This document shows, one piece after another, positions 2,628-14,440 of a DNA stretch of 43,350 nucleotides. The stretch is from a virus (taxonomy: Duplodnaviria; Heunggongvirae; Uroviricota; Caudoviricetes): the IMG/VR virus record IMGVR_UViG_2703718812_000010. The stretch is one strand, 5' to 3'. The stretch's first letter is position 1. Each line of letters opens with the position of its first letter. A program made the position numbers and the translations under genes. A model generated the notes under the pieces. The model saw only the letters and a list, made by a program, of their open reading frames with translations, searched no databases and was not told the DNA's origin.

Positions 2628-2917
2628 CCTGGCCTGAAGCATTCACAACGGTAGGAATTGCGATGGCGGTGGCGCTGGTGGTGTATTCGATTTGCCGCTG
2701 GGGATAAAAACGGTTTGCGGGAAAAGGATAGTTAAGTAGAATTGCAGCGGGTGCTTGAGGCTATCTGCCTCGGGCATGAACACCAACGGCAGATAGAGAA
2801 AAGCCCCAGTTAACATTACGCGTCCTGCAAGACGCTTAACATTAATCTGAGGCTCAATCCATGCTGAACACATGTAGGTTAGCCTCTTACGTGCCGAAAG
2901 GCAAGGAGAAGCAGGCT

Positions 2918-3073
2918 ATGAAGCAGCAAAAGGCGATGTTAATCGCCCTGATCGTCATCTGTTTAACCGTCATAGTGACGGCACTGGTAACGAGGAAAGA
3001 CCTCTGCGAGGTGCGAATCCGAACCGGTCAGACGGAGGTCGCTGTCTTCGTAGACTACGAATCTGAGAAGTAA
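2918..3073 (+). CDS. hokD: Hok/Gef family type I toxin (HokD/RelF-like), 51 aa
   Basis: Translation MKQQKAMLIALIVICLTVIVTALVTRKDLCEVRIRTGQTEVAVFVDYESEK has the Hok architecture: one TM helix followed by the conserved RK.LCE.R....EVA.F..YE periplasmic tail. AGGAGA sits 8 nt upstream of the ATG at 2918. The ORF-track start at 2861 is an in-frame upstream extension. Confidence 0.75.
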   Translation: MKQQKAMLIALIVICLTVIVTALVTRKDLCEVRIRTGQTEVAVFVDYESEK

Positions 3074-4140: not shown

Positions 4141-4752
4141 TTAACCAACAACATTTTTCTTTACTGTCACTGCCCCTGATTCCTGGGTGGCGTTATTGCT
4201 CGAGTTGTACTTCTCAATAACGCGCAAAATCTCTTTGTCTGTTTCTTCACTTCCCGCCATTCCTATCTTTATTGCATTTTTTAGTACGGGACGTAATGGC
4301 AAGGCATCAATGATGCTTTCTACCGCATCCTGGCTGATTGTAGATGTATTCATTGCTGCCAGCCTGACAAGGTTGTTAGTACCTTCTCGCCTGATGAATG
4401 TAAGGATTAATTGCTTCTCTTGGGGGCTTAGAGAGCTAAGCGCCTGATCAATACCCGAACCTGAATCGCAATTGTTTTCGATTTTTCCGCATTCATCTTC
4501 GTTCTTGCCTGTGGCCAACCATTCGAGTGAACAATTACAGGCTTTAGCTATTAAGGCCAGTTTATCCAAAGGAGGGAAGTTTTTCCCCTTCCTGTAATTT
4601 CTTACTGTGGCTTCAGATAGTCCACAAAGGGTCGCCAGTTCGACGTTTGTCATGTTTCCCATAGCCATAGCTAAGCGTTCTGAAAATCGGTTTATTCCTT
4701 CCATATCAATAAACCGTTCCGCACTGGATACGGTTTTTTCTGCCTTATCCAT
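4141..4752 (-). CDS. prophage repressor, XRE-family HTH (c-gene position)
   Basis: Leftward gene divergent from ner-A-B; HTH_XRE-like segment MTNVELATLCGLSEATVRNYRKGKNFPPLDKLALIAKACNCSLEWL; 3' end about 270 bp from the left terminus, as for Mu c. Confidence 0.7.
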   Translation of the reverse strand: MDKAEKTVSSAERFIDMEGINRFSERLAMAMGNMTNVELATLCGLSEATVRNYRKGKNFPPLDKLALIAKACNCSLEWLATGKNEDECGKIENNCDSGSGIDQALSSLSPQEKQLILTFIRREGTNNLVRLAAMNTSTISQDAVESIIDALPLRPVLKNAIKIGMAGSEETDKEILRVIEKYNSSNNATQESGAVTVKKNVVG

Positions 4753-4908: not shown

Positions 4909-5175
4909 ATGAGGGTATCCAGACAAGCATCGAATAATTTGTTTGTTCGAGAGGGGTGTGACTGGTCTGCTAAAGCGGTATATGCAGCCCTTGAAAACAA
5001 AGGCACAGACCTCCCTGAACTGGAAAGGGAGTTAGGATTAAAAAGCGGATCAATGCGCAATGTGTTTTACCGCCAGTGCCGTAAATACGAAGCCGCCATC
5101 GCCGAAAAAATAGGGGTTGAACCTGCTGTAATCTGGCCCAGCAGATACCAGGTGGACGCCAGAGAAGTGGCTTGA
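4909..5175 (+). CDS. ner: Ner-like DNA-binding early regulator
   Basis: 88 aa ORF directly upstream of the transposase, matching Mu ner in position, size and Ner/Nlp-like sequence. Confidence 0.7.
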   Translation: MRVSRQASNNLFVREGCDWSAKAVYAALENKGTDLPELERELGLKSGSMRNVFYRQCRKYEAAIAEKIGVEPAVIWPSRYQVDAREVA

Positions 5176-5185
5176 TGGGGGATGT

Positions 5186-7276
5186 ATGTGGGTAACAGCA
5201 AAAGAATGTGTTGGTCTTCCTGATTTACCAATGATGGAACATAACATTCGCCATCGACTCACAAAAGCAGCTGCGGGAAATGCAGCCATGTTACGCAAAC
5301 GTAAGGGGACAAAAGCAATCGAATTTAATATCGATTGTTTGCCTTCTGGCGCGCAACAAGTATTGCGTGAACGTTATGCCCTTCAACTGATGACGCAAAA
5401 AGCTGATGAATCACCGGCTCCGGTGGTGACAAAGGCCAGACGCTCGCCTGCCGTGGTTGATGCGGTGGAGGCATATCGCGGATCACCACAACTGATGGTT
5501 GAACGCCTTAATGCCCTGACTGAAAACCAGCGCCAGGTGGCTGATGCACGAATCGCGATCGTCAGCGAAGTGATGAAAGTCGCGCAACAACCCGGTTTCA
5601 GCTGTGCGAAAGCTATCCGGTTTATCGTTGACAACCTGGCACGTTCGCAACTGGACGAGCGCATTGTGGCAATGGTTGAGACGGCGAACGCCAAAAAGGG
5701 AAACAGCCGTGCGTTGAGTGAAATAACGCTGAAACGCTGGATTGCGGCCTTTAACAAGGCGCAGAACGCCGCTGAACGCCTGCTTTTACTGGCACCGGGT
5801 AAGCGCCAGGAAATAAAAGCCGAAGATATTAACTGGCTGCCCGAATTTCTGGCGCAGTATCGCCAGTCAAACGGCCGACCAATGACCGAGGCTTACGAGG
5901 ATTTTGTCGCTGAATGGCAGCACCGGCACGCTGATGAGCCTTATATGCTCGATATCATGCCGTCTTATGACACCATTCGCCGCGCAATGAAGAAACTGCC
6001 GGAAGTGGTGAAACAAAAAGGCCGGGTGACCGGCAGTGAATACCGCCAGCTTGAGGGATTCACGCGCCGCGACTGGTCCAGAATGCCGGTGAATTATGTC
6101 TGGATTGGTGACGGTCACGGCATGAAGCTGAAATGCGCACACCCGGTTCACGGTCGGCCATTTGCACCGGAAGTGACCTTTGTTATCGACGGTGGCACGC
6201 GCTTTGTGGTGGGCTGGAGCCTTGACCTGGCTGAAAATGTTTTCGCCGTAGCCGGTGCCATACAGCACGGCATTCGCCATCACGGCAAACCGTTTCTGTA
6301 TTACTCGGATAACGGCTCCGGGGAAACCGCCGACATCCTGGATAAGGAGGTTGTGGGGATACTGCCGCGACTGGGGATTAATCACCCGACCGGGATTGCC
6401 GGTAATCCGCAGGGACGAGGCATTATCGAACGGCTTAACCGCACATTACCGATGCGCATAGCCCGTAAATACCGCACCTATTTCGGGAAAGGTGCAGATC
6501 GCGAGACGTTACGCAAAACCAACCGCGATTTACGCTCGGCATTTACTGCCCTGCAACAGGGCAAACGGCTGAACGCCCGGCAGCAGTCAGCGATGCGTGA
6601 TTTACCGTCCTGGTCTGAACTGATTGATGCCATTCGTGACGGTGTTGAGTGGTACAACAACCGGCCGCACGATGAATTACCGGTGAAGCCGAACGGCAAG
6701 CATTACAGCCCGGCGGAGTTCAGAAAAAAACGCCTGGCGGAAGAGGACACGGAAATTGAATGGCTGTCCGATGTTGAGCTGCGGGATATGTTCCGGCCGA
6801 TGGTGGAACGCCCTGTAAGACGCTGTGAAATACGCTGGCTGAATAATATTTACTACGCGCCCGAGCTGCGTGACGAGCATGGTCGTAAGGTGCTTATCAG
6901 CTATGACATTCATGATGCCGAACGAATTACCGTACGTCGCCTGGATGGCAGCGTGATTTGCGAGGCGGTATGGGACGGTAATAAACGCGAAGCCTTCCCG
7001 GTTAGCGCGGAATACTACAAACAGCAGCAACGCCTTAAAGGCATGCGTAAACGCGCAGAGGAAAAAATCCGTGATGCCGAGGATGAGGTTGTCAACGTGC
7101 TGGAGCACAAGCCGCAGGAGCCCTGGCTGGAAAACATATACCGCCCTGTGGGTAATACGGTGACCGTTCAGCAACCGGTCGCTGACGATGAACCTGATGA
7201 AGAATACGAGCGTAATTTCCAGCGGGGATTGCAGTTGCTGGAAGCGAAATTAAAAGAAAATGACCCGCTGGCCTGA
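5186..7276 (+). CDS. Mu-type DDE transposase (MuA-like), 696 aa
   Basis: N-terminal end-binding-like domain; candidate catalytic triad in WIGDGH / YSDNGS / GIIERLN blocks; size and position match MuA. Confidence 0.9.
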   Translation: MWVTAKECVGLPDLPMMEHNIRHRLTKAAAGNAAMLRKRKGTKAIEFNIDCLPSGAQQVLRERYALQLMTQKADESPAPVVTKARRSPAVVDAVEAYRGSPQLMVERLNALTENQRQVADARIAIVSEVMKVAQQPGFSCAKAIRFIVDNLARSQLDERIVAMVETANAKKGNSRALSEITLKRWIAAFNKAQNAAERLLLLAPGKRQEIKAEDINWLPEFLAQYRQSNGRPMTEAYEDFVAEWQHRHADEPYMLDIMPSYDTIRRAMKKLPEVVKQKGRVTGSEYRQLEGFTRRDWSRMPVNYVWIGDGHGMKLKCAHPVHGRPFAPEVTFVIDGGTRFVVGWSLDLAENVFAVAGAIQHGIRHHGKPFLYYSDNGSGETADILDKEVVGILPRLGINHPTGIAGNPQGRGIIERLNRTLPMRIARKYRTYFGKGADRETLRKTNRDLRSAFTALQQGKRLNARQQSAMRDLPSWSELIDAIRDGVEWYNNRPHDELPVKPNGKHYSPAEFRKKRLAEEDTEIEWLSDVELRDMFRPMVERPVRRCEIRWLNNIYYAPELRDEHGRKVLISYDIHDAERITVRRLDGSVICEAVWDGNKREAFPVSAEYYKQQQRLKGMRKRAEEKIRDAEDEVVNVLEHKPQEPWLENIYRPVGNTVTVQQPVADDEPDEEYERNFQRGLQLLEAKLKENDPLA

Positions 7277-7347: not shown

Positions 7348-8280
7348 ATGACTGATATTAACGATGTAATCAAGACCATTGATGAACTTATTGATGGCGG
7401 CGTACTGACGCAGTATGCCATCGCCAGAGAGGCGGGAATTTCCGACGGCACATTATCGGCTTTCCGTAAGGGAAAATATAAAGGCGATAACGCTGCTGTG
7501 GCTGCTTCCCTGCGTTCCTGGTATGAGAACTGGAATAAACAAAGCGCACTGCCGGAACCGCCGCAGTTTGTGGAAACGCAGACAGTCCAGGAGCTGCGCG
7601 CACTGTTTCAGGCGGTTCGTCTGATGGGCTGTATTAACGTTATTGTGGGCGTACCGGGTGTGGGTAAAACGGCCACTGCCCGTAATTACTGCCAGGAGCA
7701 ACCAAACACCTGGATGATCACCCTGTCACCCGCGCACTCCAGCGTCACGGAGTGTCTGCTGGAGCTGGCCGATGCGCTGGGGATTGATTACACCCGCGCG
7801 AACAAAGGGGCATTATCCCGCGCCATCCGCCGTCGCCTGATGGGAACGCGTGGACTGGTTATTGTGGATGAGGCGGATCATCTTGGTATTGACGGTCTGG
7901 AGCAACTCCGGGCAATTCAGGACGCCACGGGGATCGGGATGGTGCTTATTGGTAACCCGCGCGGATTGTTTAAAGGTGGACGCCGCACCTTTGATGATTT
8001 ATCGCGCCTGTTCAGCCGTCTTGCCCGTACAAAACAACTTCGCAAGGCCAAAAAGGCGGATGTGCTGGCCATTGCCAGGGCGTGGGGGATCAGTGGTGAG
8101 GCCGAGCTGGCCGTCATGCAGGCTATCGCTGAAAAGCCGGGAGCGTTACGCGTTCTGACACATACGCTTAACCAGGCGTGGCTCACCGCCAGCGGTGAAG
8201 GCGCGGCGCTGACAGAAAAACATATTAATGCGGCCTTTAAAGAGGTTTATACCAACCCTGAATTACTCTCACAGGTGTGA
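7348..8280 (+). CDS. MuB-like AAA+ ATPase, transposition target-DNA activator
   Basis: Walker A GVPGVGKT and Walker B LVIVDEADHL; 310 aa; immediately downstream of the transposase. Confidence 0.9.
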   Translation: MTDINDVIKTIDELIDGGVLTQYAIAREAGISDGTLSAFRKGKYKGDNAAVAASLRSWYENWNKQSALPEPPQFVETQTVQELRALFQAVRLMGCINVIVGVPGVGKTATARNYCQEQPNTWMITLSPAHSSVTECLLELADALGIDYTRANKGALSRAIRRRLMGTRGLVIVDEADHLGIDGLEQLRAIQDATGIGMVLIGNPRGLFKGGRRTFDDLSRLFSRLARTKQLRKAKKADVLAIARAWGISGEAELAVMQAIAEKPGALRVLTHTLNQAWLTASGEGAALTEKHINAAFKEVYTNPELLSQV

Positions 8281-8504
8281 TTATGGCGGTATTTAATATT
8301 CCTGATATTTACGGACGCTTTTACCTGGTTAATTTCGATAACGTGAAGGTGATTTCACTGGCCGAAAATAAAGAATGTGGCGATTTACTTTTTGAATTTA
8401 ATGACCGCACACGAATGGTGATATCTGCCGGACTTGATCGAGAAGGTGCGACAGACGTTTACAGCGGAATATGCCGTTCTGTTGGTGCGAAACAAGTCAG
8501 CTAA
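8277..8504 (+). CDS. hypothetical early protein, 75 aa
   Basis: Start overlaps the B stop; first gene of the accessory early operon. Confidence 0.45.
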   Translation: MIMAVFNIPDIYGRFYLVNFDNVKVISLAENKECGDLLFEFNDRTRMVISAGLDREGATDVYSGICRSVGAKQVS

Positions 8505-8771
8505 ATGAGGTGTTATATGAATATGCAATCCTGCGGTAACAAAATGAATTTATTCGACTCCCTGAACAGCGCGCGCCGTCTGACCGAACTTGCCGGTGCG
8601 GTACTGGAACGCAGTAAGCGCTATCCGCAACGTTTTGCACTGAAAACCACGCCGCCGGTAGGCAACGTGCAGGGAACCGGTGAAATTGAAATCACCATAC
8701 AGACCAACGGCCTGCGCCGCCGTGTGAAGGCCACCCGCATCAGCGGCTGCACGGTTTACTGGGAGGTGTGA
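8505..8771 (+). CDS. hypothetical early protein, 88 aa or shorter
   Basis: Tightly packed ORF; several possible in-frame starts. Confidence 0.4.
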   Translation: MRCYMNMQSCGNKMNLFDSLNSARRLTELAGAVLERSKRYPQRFALKTTPPVGNVQGTGEIEITIQTNGLRRRVKATRISGCTVYWEV

Positions 8772-8772
8772 G

Positions 8773-9054
8773 GTGAAAAAAAATCTCATTGCATGGGCGT
8801 GGTCGAGTGGTCTTATTGAGTTTGGTTACGTCCTGCCGGAAGGTGCATTGCCGATAGTTGCCGGAAAGCCTGCCACGGTACGGCATGTGATTGAGGTTAT
8901 GGCGCGTCATGGACGTGATGAACAGGAGCAGTTACTGGTTCCGGGGATACCGGAAGCGGTGACGGAGGAAGAAGCCTTTAATGCCATGATTCGGTTCTGC
9001 CGTGAGGTCAGACGCCGGGTCAGTTATCCAAACAGAACGAGGACCAGAGGATGA
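8773..9054 (+). CDS. hypothetical early protein, 93 aa
   Basis: ORF 2 nt after the previous stop. Confidence 0.45.
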   Translation: MKKNLIAWAWSSGLIEFGYVLPEGALPIVAGKPATVRHVIEVMARHGRDEQEQLLVPGIPEAVTEEEAFNAMIRFCREVRRRVSYPNRTRTRG

Positions 9055-9323
9055 GTAAAGTCGTACGCATTATTTTCGAATACAAGGAGCACGTTATCCA
9101 TAAAAACGCTGATGGAACAGTGCGCATGGGGGTAAGTCTGGACATACGTTCAACCGGGATAAAGCAGAAGGGTGATGGACCCGCCATGATTTTTGGGGTG
9201 GTTATGCTCGCGGAAAGCAGAGACTTTGCTGAACTTGTGGCAATGAAAGCCAGTGCGCTCATGAAAGATATGAGCATGCGTTCCGGGGTTATTAAAGGTA
9301 ATGAATTTAATCAGCAGGGGTAA
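9051..9323 (+). CDS. hypothetical early protein, 90 aa (paralog A)
   Basis: Begins MSKVVRIIFEYKEH; the next gene begins MSKVRVIFEFKH, indicating a tandem duplication. Confidence 0.5.
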   Translation: MSKVVRIIFEYKEHVIHKNADGTVRMGVSLDIRSTGIKQKGDGPAMIFGVVMLAESRDFAELVAMKASALMKDMSMRSGVIKGNEFNQQG

Positions 9324-9327
9324 TTCC

Positions 9328-9621
9328 ATGAGCAAAGTACGCGTTATTTTTGAATTTAAGCATGTTTCGCATGACGAAAAACCGGCAGGCAATGACTGTG
9401 TTGAAGTGCATGAAAAGATTGGTGTGGATGTAAAAACAGAACGTGATACGAATAACAGGCCGACGTCACTCTGTGACGTTTATGCAAGTATTCTCCAGTA
9501 TCACAGTCCTGAAATTATTCAGTTTCTCTCAGCGGAATTTCAGGCATCTGTACAGGCTTTTGGGGCGGATGCCATCATTAAACGCCACCGCGTGCATAAA
9601 GCATCAGGCACACTGCAATAA
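9328..9621 (+). CDS. hypothetical early protein, 97 aa (paralog B)
   Basis: Internal ATG of ORF 9301..9621 with a GGGG-rich ribosome-binding region upstream; N-terminus parallels the previous gene. Confidence 0.5.
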   Translation: MSKVRVIFEFKHVSHDEKPAGNDCVEVHEKIGVDVKTERDTNNRPTSLCDVYASILQYHSPEIIQFLSAEFQASVQAFGADAIIKRHRVHKASGTLQ

Positions 9622-9632
9622 GGAAAAACAAA

Positions 9633-10163
9633 ATGGCAAAACGCGTTACAAAATTAAAGGCCGCAGCAGAGGCGGCACCGCAGACCCGTGAAGAGGTCAG
9701 TCGCGATATCCGCACCCTGGGCGATATTCAGCGAGAGGCGCTGCGGCTGGAAACGGCGATGAATGATGAAGTGGCAGAAATCACCGCCCGTTATACGCCG
9801 CAGATTGAAAACCTTAAAAAAGAAATCAAAGTGCTTTTTAAGGGGATTCAGGACTGGTGCAAAACCAACCGAGATGAGCTGACGAACGGCGGCAAAACCA
9901 AAACTGCCAATCTGACCACCGGAACGGTGTCATGGCGACTGGGGAATCCATCATGCAGCGTCAGTCGTGATGTGGAAGGTGTGATTGAAATGCTGCGCCG
10001 TATGGGCCTTGAGCGTTTTATCCGCACGAAAGAGGAAGTGAACAAGGAAGCGGTCCTGGCGGAGCCGGATGCGGTGAAAGGGATTGCCGGTATTAAGGTG
10101 AATAAAGGCGCTGAAAGTTTTTATGTCGAGCCTTTTGAACAGGACGCTGGACTGAATAAATAA
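9633..10163 (+). CDS. gam: Gam-like host-nuclease inhibitor (Mu Gam family)
   Basis: 176 aa ORF at the Mu gam position; N-terminal basic/coiled region then C-terminal domain; matches Mu Gam (174 aa) in size and sequence character. Confidence 0.8.
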   Translation: MAKRVTKLKAAAEAAPQTREEVSRDIRTLGDIQREALRLETAMNDEVAEITARYTPQIENLKKEIKVLFKGIQDWCKTNRDELTNGGKTKTANLTTGTVSWRLGNPSCSVSRDVEGVIEMLRRMGLERFIRTKEEVNKEAVLAEPDAVKGIAGIKVNKGAESFYVEPFEQDAGLNK

Positions 10164-10260
10164 CACCGCATTAATCAATTAAATATCACTTCGTTTTAAT
10201 TATGGCGCTCGCGTCAGGGGACTGCCTGCGCCTGTAAACTGAAAATAAGGAACAGGATAT

Positions 10261-10803
10261 ATGGCATATTTTTATTTCAAATTAGACCGTGTGCAGACAA
10301 ATAAATATTTCACCAAATATCAACAGACTGTTTTACCGCTACGCAACAGTATTCTTCGGGCATTACTGAAAAATACAGGCGCTGCCGGATTGCGCTTAAA
10401 GCCGTTTGCCATGGACGTAATCAGTGAGTTTTATTTTTCTGGTGCTCTGCCTGCGGGCTGGCGTAAGCGCGATGATGTGGCTTTTGTCGGGGACGGACCG
10501 TGCTTTATTGCCAGACCTGATGAGTCATGCCCTGAAGGACCGGCGATTGCCGCAATGATTGAAGCCGCTGAACGCGAGTTAAGAAAGCGTCCTGATTTCC
10601 TTGTCTGGCTCTGTGAAAAGCTGGGGGTAATGAGAATCCCCTCCATGTTTAACATGGACTCCTGGTGGACCCCGTCGCTCTCCCGTGATGCCCTGTGCGT
10701 GGTGTTTAAAGTAGGCGCTTATGGCAGGGAAATAAAAGGGGGTATTCCTGAAGAATGCCAGGAGATTAAACATTCTGAATATGTGGCGCTGACGGAGGAA
10801 TAA
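10261..10803 (+). CDS. hypothetical early protein, 180 aa
   Basis: ORF only. Confidence 0.45.
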   Translation: MAYFYFKLDRVQTNKYFTKYQQTVLPLRNSILRALLKNTGAAGLRLKPFAMDVISEFYFSGALPAGWRKRDDVAFVGDGPCFIARPDESCPEGPAIAAMIEAAERELRKRPDFLVWLCEKLGVMRIPSMFNMDSWWTPSLSRDALCVVFKVGAYGREIKGGIPEECQEIKHSEYVALTEE

Positions 10804-10806
10804 TTC

Positions 10807-11340
10807 ATGATTGATGCAAAAGTGCTTGAAGGGGTTAAAAACTGGCTGAGTATTTACGGGCGTCTGACCTGCGGCATTCTGGCTGAAAAAATGAATATGC
10901 CGCCATCCTCGATGGTTTATTTTCTGCGTGATGCGGTCGATGCCGGGGTGCTGACGGAATGTAACGGTTTTTATGATATTCCGCGTCCCCGCCCGGTGCA
11001 GCCGGTTCGTCGCAAATGCAGCCAGGAAGGTGCGGCTGATGATGTTCAGTGGTGCAGCTTCAGAAAATCCCTGCCGTGGATTGAGGGGCATGATATTCCG
11101 TCAATGGCGTGGGAATTTGCTCAGGGCGTTCTGACCTGTGAAACCGTTTATGTGGTGGCTGAAGTTGATGAGCAGGCCATGAAAGAAGGCGTGCCCCAGT
11201 TTGTGATGGCGTATATCGACATACGCCTGGGTGTCATTATCTGCGGTTTAAGCGGCTGGAATATCACCTCGCGCGTTCTGCGTTACCTGATTGTTGACCG
11301 GACGGCCGCGCCTGCTGGGATATCTGCGGAGGTGGCGTAA
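10807..11340 (+). CDS. hypothetical early protein, 177 aa
   Basis: ORF only; 4 nt after the previous stop. Confidence 0.45.
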   Translation: MIDAKVLEGVKNWLSIYGRLTCGILAEKMNMPPSSMVYFLRDAVDAGVLTECNGFYDIPRPRPVQPVRRKCSQEGAADDVQWCSFRKSLPWIEGHDIPSMAWEFAQGVLTCETVYVVAEVDEQAMKEGVPQFVMAYIDIRLGVIICGLSGWNITSRVLRYLIVDRTAAPAGISAEVA

Positions 11341-11855
11341 TGTTCTTTAAAACATCAAACCCTTCCGCGCTGGCCGCGTGGCAAAAATATCAGCAGGACT
11401 GCCAGAAAGTTAAGGATGAGGCAAAACGCCTTGAGGCCGTGCTGAATGTTGCGTGCCGGTCGGTATTTGTATCCGGTATCAGTGGCTTTTGTTTTAAAGG
11501 GCTGCGCTTTATGGATGACAAATATCCTTTTCATCGCGACTTATGGCGAAAACCGACTGCGTCGAATGGCTGGAGCTGCACACCGCGCACATCACGTATT
11601 CCCAAAGCCCTGCGCGTTGCCTCTGACGAACTTAACAGTCTGTGGCGTGAATATTCGCCCGTCACGTATGCCAGAACCGATGCACTGTTGTTCTGGCTGG
11701 GTATTGATTTCTCGGCAATCATGTTTGGCCCTGTGAAGTGGTTCTGCGTTGACGATGTGATTTACCTTGAGTGCGGCGTAAAACCCGCAAATCAGAAAAT
11801 GACCGAAATTCTGTCTGATGAGTTTTATGCTGCTGAAAAGCGAGTCAGGGGGTGA
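11340..11855 (+). CDS. hypothetical early protein, 171 aa
   Basis: ORF only; start overlaps the previous stop. Confidence 0.45.
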   Translation: MFFKTSNPSALAAWQKYQQDCQKVKDEAKRLEAVLNVACRSVFVSGISGFCFKGLRFMDDKYPFHRDLWRKPTASNGWSCTPRTSRIPKALRVASDELNSLWREYSPVTYARTDALLFWLGIDFSAIMFGPVKWFCVDDVIYLECGVKPANQKMTEILSDEFYAAEKRVRG

Positions 11856-11858
11856 TGT

Positions 11859-12410
11859 ATGATGATTTTACAACCCATGGGGCGAAAAGGTCAGGCACCT
11901 GCTCATGTCCGTGCGTGGACACCTGAAGAAGATGCGCTGCTGATTGCGCTTTATCCATCCACCCCGGTTAAGGATATTGCTGTCAGGGTAAAAAGAAGTT
12001 TCTGGGGTGTACATAACCGGATTGTTTTATTACGCGGTACTTACCCGGAGTTGCTCAAATGCAAACGTCCAAGATTTAAACATGATGAAGATAAATTTAT
12101 CCGAAAAAATGCCAGAACGATGACCGGTAAGCAAATAGGAGAATATCTGGGGCGAGACCGGGATTCTGTCCACAATCGGGCGCGATATATTGGCGTAAGC
12201 ATGAAAAAATACGGAGAATTGCTGCCCTTCACCCGTATACCTGACGATGATGTTCATCTTATTCGTGAATTACGGGATGCTGAATCACCACGACGTCTTA
12301 CCTTCCGGGAAATAGGCGAGAAATTTGAATTATCCGAGAGTACGGTGAATTTTATTTATCACCATCGCCGGACTGCCGAGGACGCTGTATTACGGGAGTT
12401 AACGCCATGA
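11859..12410 (+). CDS. putative DNA-binding protein with three tandem HTH-like repeats, 183 aa
   Basis: Three roughly 40 aa repeats (..VKDIAVRVKRSFWGVHNRI.. / ..TGKQIGEYLGRDRDSVHNRARYIG.. / ..LTFREIGEKFELSESTVNFIYHHRR..). Confidence 0.45.
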   Translation: MMILQPMGRKGQAPAHVRAWTPEEDALLIALYPSTPVKDIAVRVKRSFWGVHNRIVLLRGTYPELLKCKRPRFKHDEDKFIRKNARTMTGKQIGEYLGRDRDSVHNRARYIGVSMKKYGELLPFTRIPDDDVHLIRELRDAESPRRLTFREIGEKFELSESTVNFIYHHRRTAEDAVLRELTP

Positions 12411-12592
12411 TAAAGAGACTTGTATTTTTCGCAATTTTCGTTCCGGTGTTGGGGGTTGGTTTTATATTTGCGATTACAGGAAACCTGTCCATGATGCCAG
12501 ATATTTGGTTCTTTATCAGGATGTCGCTCTTCCTGTTTATTATGAATCTTCTTATCGACATATATATCCGTATTACTGGAAAACATAAATGA
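12407..12592 (+). CDS. small membrane protein, 61 aa
   Basis: Two hydrophobic segments; overlaps neighbours by 4 nt. Confidence 0.4.
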   Translation: MIKRLVFFAIFVPVLGVGFIFAITGNLSMMPDIWFFIRMSLFLFIMNLLIDIYIRITGKHK

Positions 12593-12963
12593 GAAAAATC
12601 ACGTCCTTGTCAGAGTTACAGGAGATGAATATGAGTATTGAATTAAGATCGTCTTATGAGTATCGCAAATTTCTTATCGCCGGAGGCATGAAACCGGAAG
12701 ATGTGGAAAAAATCGTTTCTTTTATGGATAAGGAATGTGATAAGCGGGATGTGTCAGAAATTATTATGGATGACATGATTCTGGATTCAGTCGTGGCGTT
12801 AAGTCCGTTATGGATTGTGCATTCTCTTGCGGAAATTGCCAAAGGCACCGATAAACAGGCAGCTGTTGCTGCCCTTCAGACGCTTAATGAAATGCGTATA
12901 TCTCCACGCCCGACATTAATACAGATGATTTTGTCCAGTATGGAGGATAAAGCAAATGAATAG
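12589..12963 (+). CDS. hypothetical early protein, 124 aa
   Basis: ORF only. Confidence 0.4.
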   Translation: MRKITSLSELQEMNMSIELRSSYEYRKFLIAGGMKPEDVEKIVSFMDKECDKRDVSEIIMDDMILDSVVALSPLWIVHSLAEIAKGTDKQAAVAALQTLNEMRISPRPTLIQMILSSMEDKANE

Positions 12964-13153
12964 TCTACCCGCTGGATGGGCGCGCCCTCTGATGGCTAAG
13001 AAGCATCATTTTTTTAAAACTGGCGATAATATCAGTATATGTAGGCGGTGGTTATATCTGGCTCATAATCGCGAGCCGGATACATTTGAAAGCCCTGATG
13101 ACTGTGCCGAATGTCGCAGAAGACTGAATAAGGAGAAAGATAATGGACAGTAG
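12956..13153 (+). CDS. hypothetical small protein, 65 aa
   Basis: ORF only; Cys-x-x-Cys pair (CAECRRR). Confidence 0.35.
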   Translation: MNSLPAGWARPLMAKKHHFFKTGDNISICRRWLYLAHNREPDTFESPDDCAECRRRLNKEKDNGQ

Positions 13154-13439
13154 TTCGCAGTTGTTCTGGTGTTTATATATCACATCGTTTTTCGGTGCAT
13201 TCGTCATTACACGATGGCTGTGCCGGAAAGTTATCAGTATTTTTCATAAAAAATACCTGATTGGGCTGGCGGCGACTTCTCTGATTAATGCACTTGCCAG
13301 ATATCATAAGGGGGAATACTACTCAAGAATAAAAACTGATGATGGTTTTAATATTTTTGTGATTCCTCCGGAGTATCGGGTTCAGCTCGATCGGGAAAGT
13401 AATATCTATCATATCAGCAGGAGTGTTGATACAGCATGA
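13143..13439 (+). CDS. small membrane protein, 98 aa
   Basis: N-terminal TM helix LFWCLYITSFFGAFVITRWL. Confidence 0.4.
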   Translation: MDSSSQLFWCLYITSFFGAFVITRWLCRKVISIFHKKYLIGLAATSLINALARYHKGEYYSRIKTDDGFNIFVIPPEYRVQLDRESNIYHISRSVDTA

Positions 13440-13945
13440 GAGGGAAACTGATATCCGCTATTCATGTGGCAAAGCACGAGCTTGCCCTAGATGATGAGAC
13501 CTACACATTCGTACTACTGGCAGCCACCGGCAAAACCAGCTGCCGGGATATGTCACCCGGTGAGTTATCCCGCGTGCTGGATGTTTTCAAAAAACGCGGT
13601 TTTAAAGTGCGTCAGAAACCGGTTAACCGGGCCTTAAAACCGGGTACGGTGACCGCCAAAATTCGCGCCATCTGGAAAGTGATGCACCGGCAGGGCTTTA
13701 TCTCTGATGGTGCGGAAACCGCTCTTAACCGCTGGGTGAAATCGCAGACGGCCGCGCAGAACGGCGGCGAAGGTGTGGCAAACTGGCAGTGGCTGGAGCA
13801 ACACCCCGCCCTGGCCTCAGATGTGCTGGAGCGTCTCAAGCGATGGCACCGCCGCAAAATGCTGGCCGCGATGGGAATGCCCGAACGCACGCTGATGGGG
13901 TATGACGCCGTTTGCAGGCAGTATGAAAAATCACTTCCCCGTTAA
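13436..13945 (+). CDS. Mu gp16/GemA-like protein (DUF1018 family)
   Basis: N-terminus MRGKLISAIHVAKHELALDDETYTFVLLAATGKTSCRDMSPGEL typical of gp16 proteins of Mu-like phages; last gene before the early-operon terminator. Confidence 0.65.
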   Translation: MRGKLISAIHVAKHELALDDETYTFVLLAATGKTSCRDMSPGELSRVLDVFKKRGFKVRQKPVNRALKPGTVTAKIRAIWKVMHRQGFISDGAETALNRWVKSQTAAQNGGEGVANWQWLEQHPALASDVLERLKRWHRRKMLAAMGMPERTLMGYDAVCRQYEKSLPR

Positions 13946-13949
13946 CCCC

Positions 13950-13980
13950 AAATCCCGCCACAACGCGGGATTTTTATTTT
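13950..13980 (+). terminator. intrinsic terminator at the end of the early operon
   Basis: Stem AAATCCCGC (13950-13958) / GCGGGATTT (13965-13973) followed by TTATTTT. Confidence 0.6.
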
Positions 13981-14014: not shown

Positions 14015-14440
14015 ATGGCAGAAACTCAGATGAGCATGTTTGGTGGTGACAGTGAGCAACTGCACGCCCTTATCGACCGCCTTGATGACATCCCTGATGA
14101 TGTTCTCAAAAAGAACTGGCCGCGGACCCTGTCAGAACTGGTTGAAGTCACCGGCGCAGAACTTCAGCGTCAGGGGATTGAGCCGGTACTGGCCGGTAAA
14201 CTGGCACGCAAGGTGGCTGCGGCTCAGGCAGCCTATATGGGCGGACGGGGTTATTACCTGCCGGTCGGGGAATCTCTCTTTGCCGAGCTGCGAAACAATG
14301 AGATATTTTCGCGCTGGGACCGGGGCGAGAAAATTGAATCCCTTCGCCGCCATTACCGGATGTCAGAAACCCAGATTTATACCGTCATACGCGAACAGCG
14401 CCGTCTGCATCTGGTAAGAACGCAACCGCCACTTTTCTGA
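14015..14440 (+). CDS. Mor/C-family transcriptional activator (middle/late gene activator)
   Basis: 141 aa; Mor/C-like sequence with C-terminal HTH region; lies between the early terminator and the lysis genes. Only one Mor/C-family gene was recognised in the window. Confidence 0.7.
   Translation: MAETQMSMFGGDSEQLHALIDRLDDIPDDVLKKNWPRTLSELVEVTGAELQRQGIEPVLAGKLARKVAAAQAAYMGGRGYYLPVGESLFAELRNNEIFSRWDRGEKIESLRRHYRMSETQIYTVIREQRRLHLVRTQPPLF

Follow-up and report, generated by a model that had tools for sequence, protein, structure and literature searches.

Early genes between B and gemA in an Sp18-type Mu-like prophage: backbone, exchangeable cargo, and a conserved hairpin

The virus record IMGVR_UViG_2703718812_000010 (43,350 nucleotides, referred to here at its full length as the window) corresponds to a Mu-like prophage with a dense block of small genes at positions 8277-13439, between the ATPase gene B and gemA (gp16). 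The question raised by this block is whether it holds undescribed anti-defence or host-manipulation genes, as proposed in the initial annotation, which had been made from the sequence without database searches, or is the early region of a phage type that we already know. We conclude that it is very probably the semi-essential early (SEE) region of an Sp18-type Mu-like prophage. It occupies the position between B and gemA/mor, and both kil- and gam-type genes are present, in agreement with the SEE assignment made initially. Both the type of region and the type of prophage in which it is found are already known.

Identity and layout of the block

Over its 5.2 kb, the block matches an Escherichia coli O157:H7 chromosome at 99.9% identity and shows about 97% nucleotide identity to prophage Sp18 of O157:H7 Sakai (ECs_4947-ECs_4959), predicted to be an apparently intact Mu-like prophage (PMC2669165). 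We found it in 233 of 5426 complete E. coli genomes (ca. 4%), and the public annotation across these 233 genomes gives every product except Gam as "hypothetical" or "DNA-binding." The genes can hardly be called undescribed, as had been suggested, since hundreds of genomes, Sakai Sp18 among them, list their products as hypothetical proteins, and the literature portrays the SEE region as long, poorly conserved, and made up of small genes to which no function has been given (PMC8705779). Within the phage collection, near-identical matches were limited to LC727881.1 and LC727895.1, which are Sp18-type Mu-like elements inside Stx1a-/Stx2c-converting phages, annotated there as "region of the inserted Bacteriophage Mu-like phage."

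On the plus strand, the gene order of the window is a ner-like gene, transposase A (5186-7276), B (7348-8280; Pfam Phage-MuB_C, E value of 2.5e-25), 14 open reading frames (ORFs), GemA/gp16 (13436-13945; Pfam GemA, E value of 9.6e-30), and Mor (14015-14440; Mor Pfam domain), with the Pfam domains of B, Gam, Gp11_C, GemA, and Mor arranged as in Mu. The dense operon that had been noticed between B and gp16 was confirmed, as the 14 plus-strand ORFs (Gam and 13 others, named w01 to w14, with w06 being Gam) occupy 8277-13439 and mostly overlap. Junctions within the block range from -11 to +11 nt, with two exceptions, namely, the 97 nt before w07 and the approximately 38 nt before w12 when its RefSeq start at 12631 is used. 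Shine-Dalgarno-like motifs lie upstream of most starts, and a search for sigma-70-like promoter sites on the plus strand of the block found none. The stop of w14 and the start of gemA, the last gene of the unit, overlap by 4 nt. Between gemA and mor there is an intrinsic terminator (13950-13980, plus strand) made of a 9-bp stem and a U-run, the hairpin of which (13950-13973) has a predicted folding energy of -13.5 kcal/mol (z score of -4.8), and none of 200 shuffled sequences folded equally well. Every ORF of the block matches a PHROG family, and the ratios of nonsynonymous to synonymous substitution rates (dN/dS) between divergent alleles were 0.11 to 0.46 in all 10 SEE genes tested (0.27 for gemA), so we can consider the ORFs of the block real genes. 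Purifying selection acts on all of the tested block genes, and no gene-wide positive selection was found among them.

From the Mu model and the gene layout, we infer how the unit could work. Derepression would produce one long transcript starting between the repressor-like gene (4141-4752, minus strand), which is the leftmost prophage gene identified, and the divergent ner-like gene (4909-5175, plus strand). This transcript would span A, B, w01 to w14, and gemA and end at the terminator hairpin, and the overlapping stops and starts would couple translation from gene to gene. The variable slots would be filled by low-GC small genes through recombination between related prophages. Several points weigh against such a simple scheme. 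Cotranscription from a single early promoter is itself a prediction from the layout, and the 97-nt gap after gam, with the hairpin element that it contains (see below), could be an internal regulatory point acting through processing, attenuation, or protein binding. The early transcript of Mu takes in mor, whereas here a strong terminator splits gemA from mor. The assignment of Kil comes from family membership and 33% identity over 39 amino acids (aa) to the Mu protein. Last, 9 of the 14 genes, namely, w01, w03, w04, w05, w07, and w11 to w14, have no assigned function, so the mechanism covers the unit and not each of its products.

Outside the block, the Rfam scan of the window gave a single match, a sok antitoxin RNA at 2749-2923 (plus strand; 113.5 bits versus a gathering score of 59), with nothing within 8277-13439. 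This hok/sok-type locus is about 1.2 kb to the left of the repressor-like gene, presumably in flanking host or island DNA.

Genes with assignable relatives and the hairpin after gam

Gam had been considered the only assignable product of the block, but several others could be placed in families. Gam itself (w06, 9633-10163, plus strand, like all genes of the block) is the Mu-type DNA-end-binding inhibitor of host nucleases (Pfam Phage_Mu_Gam, E value of 1.5e-41, 142 bits against a cutoff of 28), and it is 57% identical to Mu Gam along the entire protein. Gam attaches to DNA ends and thereby protects these from RecBCD. w02 (8517-8771, in an ORF that opens at 8505) belongs to the Kil family, matching phrog_2679 ("Kil protein for bacterial septation inhibition," E value of 7.8e-46) and showing 71 to 73% identity to Salmonella proteins with the Pfam domain PF26843 Kil_protein. 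Its similarity to Kil of Mu, which is a cell-division inhibitor, is weak (33% over 39 aa). w08 (10807-11340, 177 aa) is the ortholog of Mu gp11, with 67% identity over the full length and a match to Pfam Gp11_C (E value of 7.9e-40, 135.5 bits against a cutoff of 27), and w09 (11340-11855) is the ortholog of Mu gp12 (55% identity, E value of 1e-66), with about 51% identity to Salmonella proteins carrying PF26885 Phage_Mu_Gp12.

The 183-aa product of w10 (11859-12410) is a putative DNA-binding protein with three helix-turn-helix (HTH)/Myb-like segments, which matches phrog_323 (E value of 6e-59), a family labeled "transcriptional regulator, D5-like." Residues 66 to 166 align with the whole of Mu gp9 (ca. 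30% identity, E value of 2.6e-8), and segments 2 and 3 each match one half of it (z scores of 10 and 5.9). As for the three tandem HTH-like repeats that had been read in this protein, the resemblance of the three segments to one another is weak (z score of about 2) and all the Pfam HTH/Myb matches are below threshold (HTH_AsnC-type as the best, 1.1e-4; Myb, 0.03 to 0.08). tblastn matches to the w10 segments also fall inside genes of mycobacteriophages whose annotation is HNH endonuclease or DNA methylase, a pattern that would fit a portable DNA-binding module. Judging from these alignments, w10 is a longer relative of Mu gp9 with several HTH-like segments that probably binds DNA. Its alleles are about 70% identical among relatives.

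Downstream of the 97-nt gap, w07 (10261-10803, 180 aa) is a divergent relative of DUF5420. It is 38 to 39% identical to proteins that NCBI names DUF5420, including SfMu gp11 (39%), which carries that name in RefSeq, and 31% identical (E value of 7e-18) to a Salmonella protein carrying PF17457, the DUF5420 model, which w07 itself did not match in the Pfam scan. The AlphaFold2 model of w07 is confident (pLDDT of 88), and the same fold is seen in uncharacterized phage proteins; its comparison with the PDB gave no structural neighbor. Apparent KYQQ/WRK motifs suggested that w07 might be a distant paralog of gp12 or gp11, and this was rejected with hhalign (probabilities of 0.7% and 0.2%, respectively). 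PDB sequence searches with w03, w07, w08, w09, and w10 returned nothing significant, and we found nothing specific in the literature on Mu gp11/gp12, DUF5420, or functional work on the genes of the block.

The gap between gam and w07 contains a noncoding element of about 50 nt (10186-10236, plus strand), with the sequence TTTTAATTATGGCGC...CGTCAGGGGAC...GCGCCTG, in which GGCGC at 10204-10208 pairs with GCGCC at 10228-10232 to form a GC-rich hairpin (-17.5 kcal/mol, z score of -2.2). The element is conserved in Mu (L001 in our comparison, ca. 6350-6400) and SfMu, in one Mu-like phage of Yersinia, and in prophages of E. coli and Salmonella (the latter at 6240-6285 in L015 and 6135-6180 in L016), with L010 and L014 also among the genomes that have it, even though the flanking proteins are only 57 to 67% identical, and the Salmonella hairpin has one compensatory change from a C-G to a U-A pair. 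It has no Rfam match and no trailing U-run. As it persists where a DUF3164 protein replaces Gam, the element belongs with the DUF5420-gp11-gp12 block downstream. It could be a signal for RNA processing or stability or a palindromic protein-binding site. We found no description of it, although no literature search was aimed at it, and we point out here that Mu and related phages have this conserved noncoding hairpin ahead of DUF5420-gp11-gp12.

w03 (8773-9054, 93 aa) belongs to a very large unnamed family of phage early proteins. A profile search recovered 1012 clusters (90% identity) from phages of Enterobacteria, Pseudomonas, and Burkholderia, and no Pfam domain was present in any of them. 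These relatives were gathered with an alignment as the query, as a word-indexed search with the single sequence gave only near-identical proteins. The strictly conserved positions of the family are W/SG/RH/LLVPGxPEA. Its members follow Kil in the Mu-like prophages of Salmonella and E. coli and come just after gam in Pseudomonas-type transposable phages, and relatives are also found in a lambdoid-type Burkholderia prophage and the podophage BcepMigl, which indicates that this is a general phage early gene. The closest described proteins are those of the DMS3-12/JBD5_014 family of Pseudomonas Casadabanviruses, to which w03 is 37 to 47% identical; both are small early proteins encoded close to gam, and some members of that family have N- or C-terminal extensions to about 155 aa.

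PHROGs, the Sakai record, and most relatives label w03 a "host nuclease inhibitor," a name that appears to trace back to a frameshift fusion in phage D3112. There, a w03-like sequence lies in frame inside the 266-aa "gam" ORF (L009, 4568-5368). Aligned with DMS3 (L012, 375-1176), D3112 is one A short (CTG-ACACC versus CTGAACACC), and DMS3 encodes Gam (172 aa) and the w03-like DMS3-12 (93 aa) in two neighboring genes; JBD5 likewise has separate genes. We had considered w03 to be the C-terminal domain of a "long Gam," but the fusion in D3112 is created by this 1-nt deletion, and we detected no sequence similarity between w03 and Gam. Since the deletion fused a w03-like gene to gam, the nuclease-inhibitor name of w03 is an annotation artifact with no experimental or homology basis. 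A name given to more than 1000 protein clusters would then go back to a single-base error in one old phage record.

An AlphaFold2 model of w03 built on a 30-sequence alignment was confident (pLDDT of 87.5; 85 to 87.5 across the five models), with a beta-beta-beta-alpha-loop-alpha topology. The predicted fold weakly resembles that of MbtH-like proteins (e.g., YbdZ, PDB 5ja1_B). Membership in the MbtH family was rejected at the sequence level, as w03 has no Pfam match and the hhalign probabilities of the w03 family profile against YbdZ and MbtH were below 1%. Compared with these proteins, w03 adds the conserved LLVPGxPEA loop and a long C-terminal helix, and the context of MbtH is nonribosomal peptide synthetase clusters while that of w03 is phage early genes. 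A similarity of the w03 profile to the start of NBD1 of ClpB/ClpC/Hsp104 was also discarded, as it consisted of one nonsignificant local motif (E value of at least 0.025). With w03 and w07, two families without any annotation now have confident structure models.

Exchangeable genes and the anti-defence question

The remaining genes of the block are small. w01, the first after B, extends from 8277 to 8504 (RefSeq start at 8283; 73 to 75 aa) and matches phrog_3375 (E value of 9e-47). It has no homolog in Mu but is 55 to 57% identical to the gene that directly follows B in Mu-like prophages of Salmonella. Its GC fraction is 0.417 and its dN/dS is 0.23. An alignment of w01 with Mu Mor (36% over 39 aa, E value of 8e-4 in a database of 16 sequences) was treated as due to chance. 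w04 (9051-9323, 90 aa, phrog_4107; GC of 0.458, dN/dS of 0.28) has alleles about 80% identical, and the adjacent w05 (9328-9621, 97 aa, phrog_2230; GC of 0.435, dN/dS of 0.32) has two alleles with 61 to 64% identity. When 1.84 billion representatives were searched exhaustively with phmmer, w05 had a single full-length cluster, making it a lineage-restricted ORFan. These two genes had been taken for tandem paralogs. They do have a common N terminus (MSKV.RIIFEYK), of which BLAST aligns only the first 17 aa (E value of 0.02). Beyond it, hhalign with shallow profiles gave a probability of 51% over 74 columns, and no w04-like protein came up in the exhaustive search with w05. It is possible from these comparisons that w04 is a distant paralog of w05.

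Four small genes lie between w10 and gemA. w11 (12407-12592, 61 aa), with the lowest GC of the block (0.355), encodes a membrane protein with two hydrophobic segments (KD19 maximum of 2.79), and w12 (12631-12963, in an ORF that opens at 12589; 110 aa) matches phrog_1988 from residue 15 onward, with 34 to 36% identity to SfMu ORF14 and to proteins of Yersinia Mu-like phages and a dN/dS of 0.14. w13 (12956-13153, 65 aa with 3 Cys, phrog_2358; dN/dS of 0.11) has relatives in 287 phage records, mostly of Pseudomonas Pbunaviruses. The last gene, w14 (13143-13439, 98 aa; dN/dS of 0.14), codes for an N-terminal membrane anchor and a diverged C-terminal domain and is confined to its own lineage among 50,697 phage records. 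The hydrophobicity of the anchor is borderline here (KD19 of 1.43) and clear in the Sakai allele (1.82). Three membrane proteins had been counted in the block; w11 is a robust case with two transmembrane segments and w14 has one anchor, and a third was not found.

A gene-by-gene comparison with seven E. coli relatives separated a backbone from variable cargo. w01 to w03, Gam, w08, and w09 are present in all seven, with 87 to 100% identity. w07 is present in 214 of the 233 genomes and missing in the relatives L006 and L008, in which a 9-codon ORF (MKYVYIVIN*) is left in its place (ca. 4487-4515 and 4488-4516, respectively). This remnant resembles the start of the Salmonella-type w07-like gene (MKYAY...), suggesting that w07 was lost by deletion in these two prophages rather than never acquired. 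Between w10 and gemA, w12 and w13 are kept in most genomes, w11 is absent in L003 to L006 and L008, in which unrelated phrog_6925 and phrog_6158 genes are found instead (breakpoint at ca. 12618), and the C-terminal two-thirds of w14 exist as two alleles about 50% identical (breakpoint at ca. 13251) behind an invariant N-terminal anchor. Rarer prophages have other cassettes altogether, some genes of which, such as DUF2513, lie on the reverse strand. Such genes lie beside gemA on the minus strand in L008 (7095-7505), L006 (6870-7109), and L005 (6800-7222) and code for DUF2513, phrog_32893, and an unclassified 140-aa protein with a hydrophobic segment; possibly they are morons with their own expression. 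There are none just before or after gemA in the window.

Across Mu, SfMu, Yersinia, and Salmonella, the backbone consists of Kil, w03, Gam, DUF5420, gp11, gp12, and GemA, with three variable slots, between B and Kil, between w03 and Gam, and between gp12 and GemA. The genes common to Mu have GC fractions of 0.52 to 0.56, versus 0.36 to 0.46 for w01, w04, w05, and w10 to w14. In one Salmonella Mu-like prophage (L015, 5577-6215), a DUF3164 protein of 212 aa takes the place that Gam has in another (L016, 5576-6106), with unchanged neighbors, and DUF3164 may be a functional analog of Gam. The suspicion that the block is variable cargo was therefore right in part, as w07 is not always present, w11 and the C terminus of w14 are swapped, and w04, w05, and w10 have divergent alleles, together with low GC; the related prophages do not show a set of housekeeping genes with known roles and no variability.

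A rival explanation is that the block is a counter-defence or host-takeover island, in which at least one gene besides Gam inhibits bacterial immunity or a host function during lytic growth. We consider this possible but rather doubtful. The early expression position, the variable presence and allele replacement, the low GC, the ORFan status of w05, and the lineage restriction of w14 are all what such an island would show, and its likeliest candidates would be the swap-prone, low-GC, lineage-restricted w04/w05, w07, w11, and w12 to w14. Preprints also tie Gam_Mu-type proteins to defence interplay: they have been reported to license Gabija targeting (10.1101/2025.08.30.673261), and a Gam-like ORF has been linked to anti-SIR2-HerA activity and to sensing by retron Ec86 (10.1101/2024.04.14.589459). 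Gam is, however, the only product of the block with literature links to defence systems. Profile searches assigned the Kil, gp11, gp12, and gp9-like families and matched no defence or anti-defence family; the NCBIfam scan gave nothing useful, and the lack of an annotated anti-defence domain in Pfam/NCBIfam is weak evidence, as no dedicated anti-defence library was searched. The PADLOC scan of 10 proteins (w02, w11, and w13 were left out) gave only a marginal "HEase" match for w10 (E value of 0.008), explained by its HTH modules. Structure prediction was confident for both w03 and w07 and gave no informative neighbor for either, no protein of the block is strongly acidic as DNA mimics are, dN/dS values of 0.11 to 0.46 do not point to gene-wide positive selection, and w12 and w13 are kept in most relatives. 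An anti-defence role for genes of the block is plausible, but Pfam, NCBIfam, PADLOC, PDB sequence searches, the two structure models, and dN/dS provided no positive evidence for the anti-defence or host-manipulation genes that had been proposed.

The conserved part of the block invites another explanation, a support module for replication or transposition in which the hairpin element and w07, w08, and w09, perhaps joined by w03 and w10, would assist Mu-type replicative transposition or DNA handling and would not be conflict genes. In its favor, Mu, SfMu, and the Mu-like genomes of Yersinia, E. coli, and Salmonella keep both the gene order DUF5420-gp11-gp12 and the hairpin ahead of it, also with DUF3164 in place of Gam, w03 is found near gam in enterobacterial and Pseudomonas transposable phages, and both w10 and Mu gp9 look DNA-binding. 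We hold this explanation to be tentative and on the whole unlikely, as w07 is naturally dispensable (absent in 19 of the 233 genomes), Mu lacks the DUF5420 gene, w03 has relatives in the nontransposable lambdoid-type Burkholderia prophage and BcepMigl, and no enzymatic or DNA-metabolism domain was detected. That w11 and w14 are instead morons expressed in the lysogen, acting from the prophage as superinfection-exclusion or defence factors, seems quite improbable. Exclusion factors often take the form of small inner-membrane proteins, w11 and the w14 C terminus are the parts most often swapped, and in relatives this hotspot can hold reverse-strand genes such as DUF2513. Nevertheless, both genes are on the plus strand, overlap the stops and starts of their neighbors, and have no promoter-like site upstream, so they should be repressed with the early operon in the lysogen, and w14 had no PADLOC match (w11 was outside that scan). 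Also speculative, and in our opinion unlikely, are the ideas that the w03 family is a new class of small early proteins that adopt an MbtH-like fold, bind a conserved host factor, and redirect it, and that the swap-prone, low-GC, lineage-restricted w04/w05, w11, and w14 include an undescribed counter-defence or exclusion factor. Read as the SEE region of an Sp18-type prophage, the block is nothing unusual as the accessory early region of a prophage type already known and changes little, but the map of backbone versus exchangeable genes narrows the candidates for host takeover or counter-defence to w04/w05, w07, w11, and w14.

Comparison with Sp18, Mu, and other Mu-like phages

Sakai Sp18 has the gene set and order found here and differs by the other w14 allele (51% protein identity). 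Among the approximately 230 related E. coli prophages, some replace w11, some lack w07, and some have other cassettes before gemA. SfMu, the Yersinia Mu-like phages, and the Salmonella prophages share with the window the w07-like (DUF5420-type) and w12-like genes, both of which are missing in Mu; the SfMu study named ORF11 and ORF14 as the two proteins of that phage that have no homolog in Mu or D108 (PMC4406740). In the Salmonella Mu-like prophages, w01-, Kil-, and w03-like genes also follow each other in the same order as here. However, the SfMu, Yersinia, and Salmonella homologs are only 31 to 73% identical to the proteins of the block, and for w04, w05, w10, w11, w13, and w14 no homologs were detected in the SfMu, Yersinia, and Salmonella Mu-like genomes compared.

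Mu itself (AF083977, genes 5 to 15) has its early genes in the same position from B to gemA, on the same strand, and as densely packed as those of the Sp18-type block. The genes common to both are those of the Kil family, Gam (57% identity), gp11 (67%), gp12 (55%), the gp9-like HTH protein, and GemA (43%). Mu gp6, gp7, gp8, gp13, gp14, and gp15 have no counterpart in this block, and w01, w03, w04, w05, w07, and w11 to w14 have none in Mu. The gp9-like gene is of double length here and is placed after gp12, whereas gp9 precedes gam in Mu. The other difference concerns the end of the unit, as the terminator is located at the gemA/mor boundary in this prophage, while in Mu it is predicted after mor, with gemA and mor overlapping, which suggests that the expression of Mor is gated differently in Sp18-type prophages than in Mu.

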